DNA from: Escherichia coli | Lineage (GTDB): Bacteria > Pseudomonadota > Gammaproteobacteria > Enterobacterales > Enterobacteriaceae | Direction: 5' to 3' (one strand) | Length of the DNA: 64,000 nucleotides | Assembly: GCF_051903065.1 (NCBI RefSeq) | Contig: NZ_CP178438.1 | Shown: positions 25,201 through 36,636 of the stretch, one piece after another | How positions within the stretch are numbered: position 1 is the stretch's first letter | Layout of the letters: each line of letters begins with the position of its first letter | Program-made: the position numbers

Positions 25201-28200
25201 GCTGCACAACAGCACTCGCCCGTCGATATCCCAGGAATGAATGGTCCGCGGGCGCGGATACTCCGTTGCCAGTTCGCCGTAGACATCATCTTCAAAAATC
25301 ACAATATCATGACGCTGAGCGAGAGAGAGAACGGCCCGTTTGCGCGCGTCCGGCATAATAAATCCCAGCGGATTATTACAGTTTGGCACCAGAATGATGC
25401 CTTTAATCGGCCACTGTTCCAGCGCCAGCTCCAGCGCTTCAACGCTGATGCCAGTTTCTGGATCGGTTGGGATTTCAATCACTTTCACGCCCATGCCGCG
25501 CAGCATCTGCATTGAACCGTAATAACAGGGGGATTCGACCGCGACAATATCGCCCGGTTTACACACCGCCATTAACGCCATCGACATCGAGTTATGGCAG
25601 CCGCTGGTGATGATGATGTCATCGGCGGTGACCACCGAGCCGCTGTCGAGCATCAGGCGGGCAATCTGCTCTCGCAATACCCGCTGACCGGCTAACAAGT
25701 CATAACCGAGAACGGTTTGCAGATTATGCTGTACCACCCGGCTTAGCTCCCGCCAGAGTGGTTTCAGGCTGGGCGTTTCGACATCCGGTGTGCTTTTGCT
25801 TAACGGAACAATGGAACTGTCGCTATGCGCCTCCAGCATATCCAGCACCTGATCCCACTGGGTAATTTCCACCGGGCGTTGCACCGGACGCGTCATCGGC
25901 GGCACTGGCGGTTGGGCTTTACGTTGTGCGACAAAATAACCCGAACGCGGCTGCGGAGTGATGAGCTTCATCGTCTCCAGCGTCTGATACGCCTGCTGCA
26001 CGGTGCTGATGCTGACGCCGTGCTCCTGACTTAAGCTGCGCACCGACGGCAATTTCTCCCCGTGACGATACAGCCCTTGCTCAATCCGCTCGGCAAGCAG
26101 AGTTGCCAGATGTTGATAACGCGTCATGCTGTATTCCTTATTTGGACCATACAGAGAGAAAAACCGGTACAGATGAGGCTAAAAAACCGGATGCAGATGC
26201 TGTTTTAACCTGTCTGTATGTTAAATAAAACTAATATTTGCATCTGTATTGTGAACTGCCAGAAGACGGATGATGAAGCCTCTGAAAGATGAGGAGGCAG
26301 CAGATGGAATTTCACGAAAACAAAGCCAAAACGCCGTTTATCAGACTTGTACAACTCTGGCAGGCGGTGAGGCGTTGGCGGCGGCAAATGCAGGCCCGAC
26401 GGGTGTTACAGCAGATGAGTGATGAACGGTTGAGGGATATCGGGTTACGCAGGGAGGATGTGGAGTGAGGGGGGAAATTCCCCTTCCCGTGTGGGGAAGG
26501 GGAGAGAAACTTAGCGTGGCGTTTTGCTACTAATCACCCCAATAAATTCCTGCACCTGCTTTTGTTTACGCACCGATAGCTTGCACACCTTTCGCAGCGA
26601 CTGCATCAGTTCGCTCTCTTCGATGGCGGGTGGTTGGGCGGTGAGGACAATACAGCCTTCCATCACTTTGACATCTACCGCCGTGCCAGTGGCAAAACCG
26701 GCGGCTTCCAGCCACTGACCTTTCAGGGTGATGGCGGGAATACGGCTGTAATCCGGGTAGCGGCTCGCATAACTCACGGTTAATTGACGGTTATTTGCCG
26801 GGGAGACTTCTGCTTCGAACGGTTGTGCAATAGAATGCGTGTCAGTCATAACTGCTATTCCTTGAAAATAGTGATTGTGATGAGCGGTGCGGGTGTGTTG
26901 GCGCACATCCGCACCGCGCTAAATACCTGGATATATCATCAGTAAATACAGGGAAAGTCCAGCTAAAAATAGAAAATAATAAAAGCGTTACTGGAAAGAT
27001 CTGGAAGAGAAATTAACGTTAATTCAGAATTGCCGGATAACAAAGTGTATCCGGCCTTCATAATTAATTTAAAGCACTCATATGGTGTTCTTTAAAATTC
27101 TCTGCCTGTGCCAGCACACCCATATAAACATCATCATTCGCTACTGGCGGGAACTTATGCTTGTGTAGAAGCAGAATAAGTTCAACTTTCAGTTTCGCTT
27201 TAATATCATCGCGTTTACTCCAGTCAGGATATTTCGATGTGTTGTCAACCACGCTTTTCATCTCTTTTGCCAGTGACAGCATTTTTTCATCGTCATAGGT
27301 GAACTGATATTTATCGCGCATATGAGCAAGAATGTCGAAAAACGCTTTTTCTTCAATATCAATACCTAAATCGGCCCAGGTGCCCATTTCGGTTTTAATA
27401 TCATAGATAATATCGGTCATTTCCTGACTGAATGTATCGAATTCTTCACCGTTGAGTACATCATCTTCTCGCCGCTCATTATAACGATCTATAATCGCCT
27501 GGAAGCGGCGGGTGAAGTTAATCCCTTGCAACTGGTTCACTTTCTTGAAGTCGCTGATCGCTTTTTCCAGTAATTTTTGTAATAACTGGATCTTCGTTGC
27601 CGGAAGTTTGATCTTGTTAATTCGCGCCAGATAATCTTCGTCAAAAATATCGATGGATTCCGCTTTTTTATCGCCAAGAAAATAAATTTCTTCTACGCCA
27701 TCAGCTTTTAGCGCTTCTGCAATCATTTCACGAACGCGTGCATTCATCTGGGTGACATCCGGTGCGTCACCTTTCGTCAGTTTGAAAACAATTGAACGAA
27801 CAGCAAGATAATAGTGAATATAGTCACGTTCTGTCTGTGATAATGCTTCGCTGCCGCAGCAGACGTCGTAGGCGGCTTTCATGCGTTTAACCAGTCCCAT
27901 AAACCGACGTTCAACTTTCTGGGTACGCAGAACGAATTCCGCCGCGCGGTTGAGGCAGGATAATTGCGCTTGTGGCTCACCACTAAAATAATCCCGACTG
28001 TCAAATTCGTAAAAGACTTGCCCCAACAAATCGAGATGGTTTTTAACTTCTATTACCGATTGCTGAATATCTTCAAAGTTGGTGGCATCAATGCGGGAAT
28101 ACATTGCCAGTGCCTGGTTCATCTGACTTTTAATGCCGATGTAGTCCACCACTAACCCTTTGCTTTTGCCTTCCAGTTTACGGTTAACGCGAGAAATAGT

Positions 28201-34200: not shown

Positions 34201-36636
34201 AGAATGCCTTCCTGGTCGTCCAGTGAACGCAGCGTTTTTTCGTCATCTTGCAGGAATTTTTGCCCGCGCGAGGTGGGCAGCCAGGTATCATCTGGCGTGC
34301 TTTCCATCAGCTCAAACTGGGGATAGTTGAGGAATAAGTAGCAGCCGTAGCTGTGGCGCGGATTCAGAATGTGATTGTCAGTATCCCAGATGCGACGGGC
34401 GATGTCGGCATCTTCACCCGTTAAGCGCTCGCTGATCCACAGGTCGGGTTCTGACCAGTCAACGGGTTTTTGCGGCGTACCGGTTTGATCGCGAATGGCG
34501 GTAATCATATTGCGTACCGCTTTCAGGGAATAGCCTGAGACGGCTTTCATCATAGCTTTAACCTGTGCATAGGTAGGAAAAAGCGGGGTAATAACTTTAT
34601 AGTTTTTCACGGTAATCCCTTAACGACAGCGAGGTGTTTAGTGTGCCATGTCAGGCGAGAAATTCTATTGGATGAATCAAGTCCAACTTACTCATTGTCA
34701 ATTTCATGGTTGATTATCCAAAACGTGATGCTATTTCCAACATCAACGCTATAATTGCAGAATAATTGTAGATACATTTTTGTATATACAATTAGGGATG
34801 GCAACTATGCCAATGGAGTTTGAATGGGATGCAAACAAGGCCAAAAGTAATCGGGTGAAACATGGCATCCGCTTTGAAGATGCGGTGTTAGTGTTTGATG
34901 ATCCACAACATTTGTCACAGCAAGATCGCATAGAAAACGGTGAGTATCGCTGGCAGACTATCGGCTTGGTTCACGGTATCGTGGTTATTCTGGTTGCGCA
35001 TACCATCCGTTTCGAAAGCGGAAATGAAATTATTCGAATCATCAGTGCACGAAAAGCAGATCGTAAAGAGAGGAGTCGCTATGAGCATGGTTAAACATAA
35101 ACGAGGGGCACCCTCTACACTCGATGTGCAGCATGAGGCCGAACTGAAGGCACTGGCGAATAAATCCGACGAAGATATTGATTACAGTGATATCCCGCCT
35201 TCCAGCGATGAGCAATGGTCTAACGCAGAACGCGGTAAGTTTTATCGGCCATTGAAAACTCAGGCTTCGGTGCGTATTGATGCTGATGTGATGGAATGGC
35301 TGAAGCGACCAGGTAAAGGCTATCAAACTCGCCTGAACGCAATTTTACGTGAAGCGATGCTGCGCGATCAGAACAAAAAATAATTCAGGCCGCCACATGG
35401 CGGCCATCATCCAAAATTACTTCCTCAACCCCGCAAACGCTGCCCGAATCTCTTCCTCCGGCAACTGAATCCCGATAAACACCATTGTGCTATGCGGTGT
35501 TTCATCACCCCACGGCCTGTCCCAGTCGGCGCTGTAGAGGCGCTGGACGCCCTGGAATAGCAGGCGGTTAGGTTCGCCGTCAATCCACAGCATCCCTTTG
35601 TAACGCAGCAGTTTATCCGCCGATTCCAGCAGCAGGTTTTCCATCACCCGGGAAACTTCGCTGATATCTACCGGGTAATCCAGTTCCACCACAATCGACG
35701 AAATATCGTTTTGTTTATCCGCGATAAAGTGGAAACGCGGTTTGGTGCTGACGACGTTCTCTTCCAGCATAAAACCGTTGGTGTTGAACAGCAGGCCCAG
35801 GTCGATGTCGCCGTGGGTGACGGTGTAGACCGGTGCACGGGCGTTGATGCGCGCCAGGCGTTCACGCAGTTTTTCTGCTTCGCCTGCGACGTCGGTTTTA
35901 GTCAGCAGAATACGGTCGGCGTAGCCCACCTGGGACTGGGCGATGGTGAACTGGTTCATCTGCTCATCGGCATGTACCGCATCCACCAGCGCAATCACGC
36001 CGTCCAGCAGGTAACGCTGGCATAAAATCTCATGGGAGAAAAAGGTCTGAATAATCGGGCCGGGATCGGCCATGCCGGTGCATTCAATGACCAGACGATC
36101 GAACTGAATATTGCCCTTGTCGAGATTATCCAGCAGGTCGAGTAGTGCGTCTTCCAGCTCGTTGGAGCGCGAACAGCAGATGCAGCCGTTGGTCAGCGTT
36201 TTGATCTGCGTGGCGCGGTCGCCAATCAGTTGATCATCAACGGAGACTTCGCCGAATTCGTTTTCAATCACGGCAATCTTGTAGCCGTGTTGTTCGTTAA
36301 GAATATGGCGCAGCAGGGTGGTTTTGCCCGCGCCTAAAAAACCGGTGAGTAGGGTAACTGCAATCGGGTTCATGCTCTCTCCATTAACAACAGCGCATAC
36401 CGCCTTTACCATCGCCGCCGTAGCGCGCGTTCTGGCGTTCGCGGAAGAATTCTTCATAGCTCATGTACGGCTTGTCGGGATGGTTGGTCTTCATATGCTC
36501 GACGTAGTTGTCGTAGTCTGGAATGCCAATCAACATCTTCGCCGCCTGGCCGAGATATTTTTTTGCCTGTCCTAAGTTACCAAACATTTTGCCTTCCAGA
36601 TATGCGTAAAGCCCGGAAGGTCCGGGCTGGGGATTT

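Follow-up and report, generated by a model that had tools for sequence, protein, structure and literature searches.

The yjiS-yjiA interval and its genes

The stretch of Escherichia coli DNA analysed here (the window, 64,000 nucleotides) carries, between the conserved anchors yjiS and yjiA, an interval of 8.95 kb, compared with ~16 kb in K-12. Its order is yjiS, symE/symR, hsdR, hsdS, hsdM (transcribed M to S to R), a gene for an Mrr-type nuclease, brnTA and yjiA. Very probably this is the immigration-control region of E. coli in its standard type ID form (StySBLI/EcoR9I/KpnAI family), encoding an intact type I enzyme with M and R subunits that are essentially the EcoMII ones. The features are given below; for symE, hsdR, hsdS and yjiA, starts taken from the longest ORF lie upstream of those that the identical RefSeq record annotates.

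26304-26468, plus strand: yjiS, left conserved anchor, DUF1127, 54 aa (90.7% identity to K-12 YjiS; annotated yjiS in RefSeq)
26511-26849, minus strand: symE, SOS-induced toxin/nucleoid-associated protein, 112 aa (NCBIfam SymE equivalog NF010128, 218.5 bits, cutoff 132)
26844-26920, plus strand: symR, antisense RNA antitoxin over the symE 5' end (Rfam RF01809, 91.7 bits, gathering threshold 61, E = 3e-17, full model)
26927-26942, minus strand: LexA-box-like CTG-N10-CAG, CTGATGATATATCCAG, upstream of symE (read from the sequence)
27064-30327, minus strand: hsdR, type ID restriction/translocase subunit, 1087 aa (TIGR00348, 468 bits; PADLOC REase_I PDLC03040, full length)
30394-30413, minus strand: GC-rich hairpin with a T-rich tail behind it, within the 94 bp separating hsdS and hsdR (terminator-like pattern scan)
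30422-31771, minus strand: hsdS, hybrid specificity subunit, 449 aa (alignment to EcoMII HsdS; PADLOC)
30425-30526, minus strand: HsdS C-terminal conserved region, identical to EcoMII
~30527-31096, minus strand: HsdS second target-recognition domain (TRD2), a rare module
~31097-31321, minus strand: HsdS central conserved region, nearly identical to EcoMII
~31322-31771, minus strand: HsdS first target-recognition domain (TRD1), that of EcoMII
31761-33380, minus strand: hsdM, type ID N6-adenine methyltransferase subunit, 539 aa (PADLOC MTase_I, 643 bits)
33444-34610, minus strand: Mrr-type nuclease gene, predicted modification-dependent (type IV), 388 aa (Pfam Mrr_cat at residues 243-359, E = 4e-29)
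34807-35094, plus strand: brnT, type II toxin, 95 aa (Pfam BrnT_toxin PF04365, E = 7e-25)
35081-35383, plus strand: brnA, antitoxin, 100 aa (Pfam BrnA_antitoxin PF14384, E = 3e-17)
35417-36373, minus strand: yjiA, right conserved anchor, GTPase (99.1% identity to K-12 YjiA)

DNA homology to K-12 stops at 26478 on the yjiS side and restarts exactly at 35417 on the yjiA side, and tblastn with K-12 queries found no homologue of McrB, McrC or YjiT across the whole 64-kb window. The preliminary description of this DNA had reported an interval of about 9 kb without mcrBC, an M-S-R order with the gene content and strands given above, and two toxins, SymE and BrnT, bracketing the restriction-modification genes, all of which agree with our gene calls and, for order, content and strands, with the RefSeq record. 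It had also presented the position of symE next to hsd as a change from K-12, which it is not, as the K-12 symE is likewise co-directional with the hsd operon and lies just downstream of it.

The hsdR, hsdS and hsdM ORFs are all full length, the three products match PADLOC type I models, and alignment divides the S subunit into two TRDs split by conserved regions; the HsdM score against TIGR00497 is 174.8 bits, under the model cutoff of 242.75. Every catalytic motif checked is present: in HsdR the FEFK nuclease motif, the GATGCGKS Walker A motif (residue 325), the DEAH box (429), TGTP and QTISRVNR, and in HsdM the SAM-binding DPCCGS and the catalytic NPPF, with TLWDTANQLRG at residue 18. hsdM and hsdS share 11 bp at their junction, and the hairpin between hsdS and hsdR suggests that hsdM-hsdS and hsdR may be separate or attenuated transcription units.

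SymE is 91.7% identical to K-12 SymE, its gene lies within a 449-bp K-12-homologous stretch (26532-26980, 93% identity), and the cis-antisense SymR overlaps the symE start at 26849, the arrangement of a type I toxin-antitoxin pair. The exact LexA consensus CTGT-N8-ACAG is absent near symE; what is present is the K-12-type CTG-N10-CAG with one substitution, the K-12 promoter counterpart being CTGATGATATATACAG, which differs by 1 base, and EC958 having the same sequence as the window. LexA binding at K-12 symE is established, and by analogy we infer that LexA may bind the putative box here. At the other end, brnT and brnA are adjacent with a 14-bp overlap, as in BrnTA type II toxin-antitoxin systems, and the BrnT of EC958 shows 100% identity to the one here.

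The Mrr-type protein gives a full-length match to the PADLOC candidate defence family PDC-S02 (E = 1e-205) and is 98.5% identical to EC958_0079, which has been named 'Mrr' (PMC4659465). It resembles EcoKMrr in the catalytic domain only, at 32% identity over 173 aa; there is no Pfam match to Mrr_N, and its ~240-residue N-terminal region gives sub-threshold winged-helix hints only. A sequence search of the PDB returned no solved structure matching it. On these similarities it is classed as a member of the Mrr_cat superfamily and not as an EcoKMrr orthologue. The Mrr-type nuclease, the SOS-controlled symE/symR and brnTA are regular companions flanking the type ID cassette. Systems of types IA, IB and ID are described at the immigration-control locus in a 2025 review (PMC12707154), alongside brnAT, symE/symR and rpn, with type ID there in 12% of enterobacterial genomes and type IC systems there in none of 9040 genomes.

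Placement in the type ID family

Families of type I enzymes are delimited by subunit identities of ~80-90% or more within a family and ~17-33% between families (inter-family ranges from PMC2481252). HsdR is 99.6% identical to the EC958 EcoMII HsdR, with 4 substitutions (S139F, M141I, N422S and S1085A), and HsdM is 99.4% identical to the EcoMII HsdM, with 3 (P5L, T424N and Q530K), all of which look conservative. Identity to EcoKI is 24% for HsdM and 25% over 219 aa for HsdR, and matches to EcoR124 are distant, so that the earlier statement that HsdR and HsdM are not of the EcoKI type, made with the motifs GATGCGKS, DEAH and TLWDTANQLRG, is confirmed. The EcoMII HsdR is 92% identical to that of StySBLI (PMC4659465), and the link from the window to the family prototypes runs through EcoMII and this published value, not through direct alignment to StySBLI, EcoR9I or KpnAI. 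The chromosomal location is allelic with hsd in the immigration-control region, and at least 4 different HsdS alleles were found in nature with the same M and R subunits. A further hallmark of type ID, from Table 1 of the review, is a distance of 6 bp between the methylated adenines. EcoUTI89I of strain UTI89, considered as a sibling, was rejected as a type IA system.

The hybrid specificity subunit and its predicted target

The specificity subunit, unlike M and R, is not that of EcoMII throughout. HsdS matches its EcoMII counterpart at ~99% identity over residues 1-228, shows no relationship to it over residues ~229-415 and is identical again at the C-terminus, and TRD2 is identical in strains mip270_04 and AST215, both of which carry it with other TRD1s. 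A mosaic map of 200-bp sliding DNA identity puts the breakpoints at ~30400-31200 relative to EC958 and at ~31200-31800 relative to mip270_04/AST215, and in both the protein alignment and this map the module boundaries are sharp. The TRD region had been called AT-rich, and its GC content of 0.33-0.37 (30500-31499) bears this out. By its sequence, the HsdS of the window is a natural domain-swap hybrid, with TRD1 and both conserved spacer regions of EcoMII and a rare TRD2. Among 5426 complete E. coli genomes, TRD1 DNA occurs in 437 and TRD2 DNA in 4, and just 2 complete genomes combine both. At least 103 public contigs (179 index blocks) encode the exact 449-aa protein, and the genomic context is the same in all 24 of the contigs read.

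The nearest relative of TRD2 is a truncated 212-aa ORF of Enterobacter cloacae (85% identical); further relatives, at most 63% identical, are metagenome proteins and proteins of cyanobacteria, Legionella and Acinetobacter, and none of the relatives found has a known motif. A search of HsdS against PDB sequences returned remote S-subunit matches only. Comparison with the TRDs of EcoKI (AAC and GTGC) was not significant, with best E-values of 1.8e-4 (18% identity) and 0.08, and half-site assignment by that route was dropped as uninformative.

What might the hybrid enzyme recognize? Only its second TRD differs from EcoMII, so that one half of the target is predictable from EcoMII, and the unrelated TRD2 means that the other half of the recognition sequence must differ. 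The prediction depends on the EcoMII motif, on which the primary paper (PMC4659465) contradicts itself: the main text gives AAC(N4)CTTT, but in its Table S5 the EC958_0078-0077 knock-out loses RTACNNNNGTG/CACNNNNGTAY. The primers for this knock-out map onto hsdM-hsdS of the immigration-control region. The HsdS, HsdM and HsdR of ATCC 25922 are identical to those of EcoMII, nanopore data show that this strain methylates RTACnnnnGTG and that AACnnnnCTTT is absent from its motifs (PMC12679398), and its thrW island, the one examined, contains no type I system at thrW. Literature on the Nissle 1917 methylome and on Eco912I and Eco851I sequences was searched as well, and the ATCC 25922 nanopore study was the one informative result. 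RTA*C(N4)GT*G places 6 bp between the target adenines, as in type ID. The evidence favours RTAC(N4)GTG over AAC(N4)CTTT as the EcoMII target, and the latter was set aside on Table S5 and the ATCC 25922 data; if the main text were nevertheless correct, the half-site in common would be AAC or CTTT instead. The RTAC(N4)GTG assignment may serve engineers of Nissle 1917, ATCC 25922 and ST131.

The hybrid enzyme would thus recognize one EcoMII half-site joined to a different second half-site. In types IA, IB and IC it is established that the 3-bp half-site belongs to the N-terminal TRD, and by analogy the half-site shared with EcoMII is most likely CAC, from CAC(N4)GTAY (= RTAC(N4)GTG); alternatively, it would be RTAC. 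HsdS and its EcoMII counterpart have conserved spacer regions of equal length and nearly identical sequence, so that the 6-bp spacing between the two methylated adenines, the type ID geometry, would be expected to be retained. As in other members of the family, the M2S methyltransferase would be expected to methylate one adenine per strand of the bipartite site, and R2M2S at an unmethylated site to translocate DNA in an ATP-driven manner and cleave at a distance.

The specificity had at first been described as unknown and perhaps new, a view to be revised in so far as one half is predictable from the EcoMII TRD1; it stands in that we found no specificity reported for this HsdS in the literature searched. 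The chances are about even that the hybrid recognizes a sequence unrecorded for any type I enzyme and completes a natural domain-swap series, with EcoMII sharing TRD1 and AST215 and mip270_04 sharing TRD2. Were this so, the series would permit the first matching of half-sites to individual TRDs among type ID enzymes. It is possible, if somewhat doubtful, that there is nothing new here, the exact HsdS or an isoschizomer having already been characterized with a known site, such as Eco912I, CAC(N5)TGGC, whose listed methylation interval is 6 and whose site includes a CAC half-site. The exact HsdS has been public for years on the contigs counted above, and some carrier may therefore have had its methylome determined by long-read sequencing. 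However, the full-text literature searched reports no recognition motif for this allele, the likeness to Eco912I is one of motif only, and TRD2 is as scarce among complete genomes as described. As to whether the exact hsdMSR set is a named system in the same context, the experimentally characterized EcoMII agrees with it in context, in the Mrr-type gene and in subunits M and R, but not in HsdS, where the second TRD differs.

Activity, distribution and known systems

From its intact coding sequences we infer that the hybrid system is probably active as a restriction enzyme with the predicted target. A silent cassette, either unexpressed or inactivated by its substitutions and forming no restriction barrier, is improbable. 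Decay does occur in the type ID family, as hsdM is frameshifted at the sibling locus of mip270_04, and one of the HsdR substitutions relative to EcoMII, N422S, lies 7 residues ahead of the DEAH box; against this, the ORFs are full length, the motifs checked are all intact, more than 100 contigs carry the allele without change, and in EC958 EcoMII, an enzyme of demonstrated function, has a well-transcribed hsdM and a motif that is >99% methylated (PMC4659465). In an active system, the HsdS allele sets which incoming DNA the lineage cuts and which methylation plasmids need for entry, and the carriers comprise human isolates of the carbapenem era from Ecuador together with over 100 further assemblies.

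Of 5426 complete E. coli genomes, 788 have the layout at 80% or more coverage of the interval, among them ST131 EC958, Nissle 1917 and ATCC 25922, whose gene order and annotation are the same as in the window; E. coli 23CRST027 and 23CRST031 are 100% identical over the interval. Type ID hsdM DNA is present in 872 of the 5426, and that of the window has only ~97.3% identity to its ST131 counterparts, which means a different host lineage. The region had been called remodelled, in the sense of a strain-specific rearrangement; the genome counts and two papers (PMC12707154, PMC4659465) identify it instead as a canonical type ID cassette. Strain-specific remodelling, with acquisition of a type I system whose family was new or unplaced and whose specificity was wholly unknown, might have been suggested by an interval 7 kb shorter than in K-12, by the missing mcrBC and yjiT/yjiV and by the low HsdM and HsdR identity to EcoKI, but it is hardly credible and is refuted by these counts, by the shared layout and by M and R subunits >99% identical to those of EcoMII, in a family known since StySBLI, in a reviewed arrangement and with TRD1 common to EcoMII. 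The rare recombinant HsdS is the sole unusual feature of an otherwise ordinary type ID cassette, a version of the region that roughly one in six complete E. coli genomes carries. It adds a further case of type I specificity evolving by TRD shuffling between near-identical enzymes at a recombination hotspot, and no new principle.

The closest known system is EcoMII (EC958_0076-0078, with identical proteins in Nissle 1917 and ATCC 25922), which has the same position and M-S-R order; its HsdS is 434 aa rather than 449 aa, and shares with that of the window the first 228 residues and the C-terminus, but not TRD2. The type ID prototypes StySBLI, EcoR9I and KpnAI belong to the same family by published identity and are allelic at the enteric immigration-control region, although their TRDs differ from those of the window and their targets are CGA(N6)TACC, AGCA(N6)TGA and GGCA(N6)TTC, respectively. 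The type IA EcoKI region of K-12 has the same yjiS and yjiA anchors, symE/symR co-directional downstream of hsd and an Mrr-family gene on the yjiA side. It differs in its R-M-S order, its enzyme family, its additional mcrBC and yjiT/yjiV and its lack of brnTA, and the 304-aa K-12 Mrr is encoded on the opposite strand relative to the Mrr-type gene described here. With EcoKMrr and PDC-S02 the Mrr-type protein has in common the C-terminal Mrr_cat PD-(D/E)xK nuclease domain. The plasmid-borne type IC EcoR124I is of a distant family (HsdR, E = 3e-24; HsdM, E = 1e-38), although EcoR124 supplied the only solved HsdR structures returned by sequence search. The operon order of type IC, hsdM-hsdS-hsdR, is that of the window.

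Gene content of the yjiS-yjiA interval

What occupies the interval between yjiS and yjiA, where the preliminary description had placed a restriction-modification system of type I and no mcrBC? The gene order was taken from the ORF list and from the annotation of a RefSeq record with 100% identity, that of E. coli 23CRST027 (from human faeces in Ecuador), with Pfam matches for BrnT and BrnA; an Rfam match and a spacer hairpin are included.

26304-26468, + strand, yjiS
26511-26849, - strand, symE
26844-26920, + strand, SymR, antisense to the symE start (Rfam, 91.7 bits against a gathering score of 61)
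27064-30327, - strand, hsdR
30394-30413, - strand, GC-rich hairpin with a 7-bp stem and T-rich tail, within the 94-bp hsdS-hsdR spacer
30422-31771, - strand, hsdS
31761-33380, - strand, hsdM
33444-34610, - strand, Mrr-type gene encoding a 388-aa "restriction endonuclease"
34807-35094, + strand, brnT
35081-35383, + strand, brnA
35417-36373, - strand, yjiA

The 3' end of hsdM and hsdS share 11 bp, and the hairpin in the hsdS-hsdR spacer suggests that hsdR would be transcribed apart from hsdM and hsdS, or after attenuation. No tblastn match to K-12 McrB, McrC or YjiT was found in the entire 64-kb window. Homology to K-12 DNA ends at 26478 and picks up again at 35417, and inside this otherwise non-homologous interval the symE/symR stretch (26532-26980) is 93% identical to K-12. 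The ORFs, RefSeq annotation, tblastn search and K-12 DNA comparison thus bear out the gene content first described, including the absence of mcrBC.

The 388-aa protein possesses a C-terminal Mrr_cat nuclease domain (Pfam) and matches the PADLOC candidate family PDC-S02 over its full length, whereas EcoKMrr is 32% identical to it in the catalytic domain only. It gave no match to the Mrr_N domain, and no related solved structure was detectable by sequence. Its sequence places it as a different Mrr-superfamily protein from EcoKMrr, and its modification dependence is a prediction. Neither SymE/SymR nor BrnTA stands out within its family. Upstream of symE there is a LexA-type box as in K-12, with one substitution; a role for either pair in island stabilisation or abortive defence is speculation.

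Elsewhere in the window, between mdtM and yjiR, there is an intact gene for a 314-aa Rpn-family (RpnD-like) recombination-promoting nuclease (23529-24473, + strand), whereas its K-12 counterpart, rpnD, is a pseudogene; rpn is counted among the toxin-antitoxin modules of the immigration-control island (PMC12707154). Approximately 11 kb between btsT and tsr (~39175-50490) has no K-12 counterpart and opens with the genes for both subunits of 4-hydroxyphenylacetate 3-monooxygenase, a reductase-subunit gene and hpaB. Two sub-threshold Rfam matches, naRNA4 between yjiX and btsT (36610-36667, - strand; 47.3 bits against a gathering score of 59.5) and ES036 downstream of yjiR (24522-24564, - strand; 33.4 against 37.6), are probably REP-type repeats.

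Family of the enzyme and the EcoMII recognition sequence

HsdR and HsdM of the window are 99.6% (4 substitutions) and 99.4% (3 substitutions) identical to those of the ST131 strain EC958. The published knock-out and qPCR primers for EC958_0078-0077 match EC958 hsdM-hsdS at the yjiS-yjiA locus exactly, and the EC958 system at this locus is therefore EcoMII. As published, EcoMII is encoded by hsdM, hsdS and hsdR, in this order in one operon, beside which lies an "Mrr", and its R subunit shares 92% identity with the R subunit of StySBLI, type ID's founding member (PMC4659465). Type IA EcoKI, in contrast, exhibits only inter-family identity to the window proteins (HsdM 24%, HsdR 25% over 219 aa), as the preliminary description had anticipated in calling the system non-EcoKI, and matches to type IC EcoR124 are distant only. 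All catalytic motifs sought are intact: FEFK (nuclease), GATGCGKS, DEAH, TGTP, QTISRVNR, DPCCGS and NPPF. Assigned from sequence and location, the window system is a member of type ID, its link to StySBLI passing through the published EcoMII identity value.

Which site does EcoMII recognize? The main text of PMC4659465 gives AAC(N4)CTTT for EcoMII and RTAC(N4)GTG for EcoMIII, the system of the thrW island. In Table S5 of the same paper the assignments are reversed: the EcoMII knock-out loses RTACNNNNGTG/CACNNNNGTAY and the EcoMIII knock-out loses AACNNNNCTTT. The SMRT data for the EC958 knock-outs carry the accession SRP058075. Strain ATCC 25922 has HsdS, HsdM and HsdR identical to those of EcoMII at the yjiS-yjiA locus, and at thrW it carries a vat island, where no type I system was found. 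Its nanopore methylome, stated to agree with REBASE for the strain, contains RTACnnnnGTG, and AACnnnnCTTT is not among its motifs (PMC12679398). In the light of Table S5 and of this methylome from a strain with no thrW type I system, the EcoMII site is very probably RTAC(N4)GTG (= CAC(N4)GTAY), in which the spacing of the two target adenines is unambiguously 6 bp. The comparison draws on loci L006 (16319-19240), L009, L010 (28655-30862) and L013.

A hybrid HsdS and its predicted target

The sole distinctive part of the cassette is hsdS. Residues 1-228 of HsdS, comprising the N-terminal target-recognition domain (TRD1) and the central conserved region, are ~99% identical to EcoMII HsdS, residues 229-415 (containing the second domain, TRD2) are unrelated to it, and the C-terminal conserved region is identical. 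In 200-bp sliding identity maps, divergence from EC958 is confined to ~30400-31200, and divergence from mip270_04 and AST215, two strains with the same TRD2 but other TRD1s, to ~31200-31800. Judged from these alignments, hsdS is a clean module swap. The TRD1 DNA (31320-31771) is 99.8% identical to ST131-type and other listed copies and the hsdM DNA (31800-33380) only ~97.3% identical to the ST131 and ATCC 25922 copies, a hint that the TRD1 module may have passed from one lineage to another later than the neighbouring hsdM. The sibling loci show decay and layering: mip270_04 has a frameshifted hsdM (L004, 8322-9940), and AST215, whose hsdM is intact, has a DUF262 fragment and a GmrSD gene between yjiS and symE (L005, 2869-4962), before the same type ID cassette.

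Among complete genomes, TRD1 DNA is present in 437 and TRD2 DNA in four, the latter count holding at blastn sensitivity too; 23CRST027 and 23CRST031 alone combine the two. In a large public collection the identical 449-aa HsdS (WP_047623653.1) nevertheless turned up on 103 or more contigs (179 index blocks), with the same gene neighbours in all 24 contigs read, and is therefore a circulating lineage allele and not a one-off. Across other phyla, TRD2-like domains of 45-55% identity occur widely, and the closest relative is an Enterobacter ORF (85% identity); no known recognition motif was found attached to these relatives, the Enterobacter ORF included.

Type ID enzymes are characterized by 6 bp between the methylated adenines (review Table 1, PMC12707154). 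Since the window enzyme shares its conserved HsdS spacers and its M subunit with EcoMII, it should retain this spacing, and one half-site should be that read by EcoMII TRD1. For types IA, IB and IC, it is the N-terminal TRD that recognizes the target's 3-bp component. By analogy, the most likely target would be CAC (its A the target base), 4-5 unspecified bases and a new half-site of 3-5 bp; the alternative is RTAC, again targeted at its A, with a new half-site. Eco912I, CAC(N5)TGGC with an interval of 6, is a candidate isoschizomer on the basis of its motif. The specificity, at first considered unknown and possibly new, can thus be predicted for one half through EcoMII TRD1, and the recognition sequence of this rare TRD-swap HsdS may be the only novelty of the system. 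The second half-site could be read from long-read data of any carrier strain, such as 23CRST027, 23CRST031 or GCA_949766195.1.

Distribution and comparison with known systems

Window positions 26200-35500 are covered to at least 80% in 788 of 5426 complete E. coli genomes (megablast), among them Nissle 1917, many ST131 strains and ATCC 25922, and the type ID hsdM alone reaches this coverage in 872. Gene set, order and orientation in Nissle 1917, EC958 and ATCC 25922 are all as in the window. A 2025 EcoSal Plus restriction-modification review counts the immigration-control region (yjiN/yjiS-yjiA) among defence islands; of 9040 enterobacterial genomes, 12% have type ID at the locus (PMC12707154). 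The region is consequently not remodelled in a manner private to this strain. The adjacency of symE and hsd is real, but K-12 symE also lies directly downstream of the hsd operon in the same direction, and the arrangement is therefore conserved and not new. The original observation is confirmed and its interpretation partly supported: this is a common, previously described immigration-control allele with a type ID enzyme, a sibling of EcoMII.
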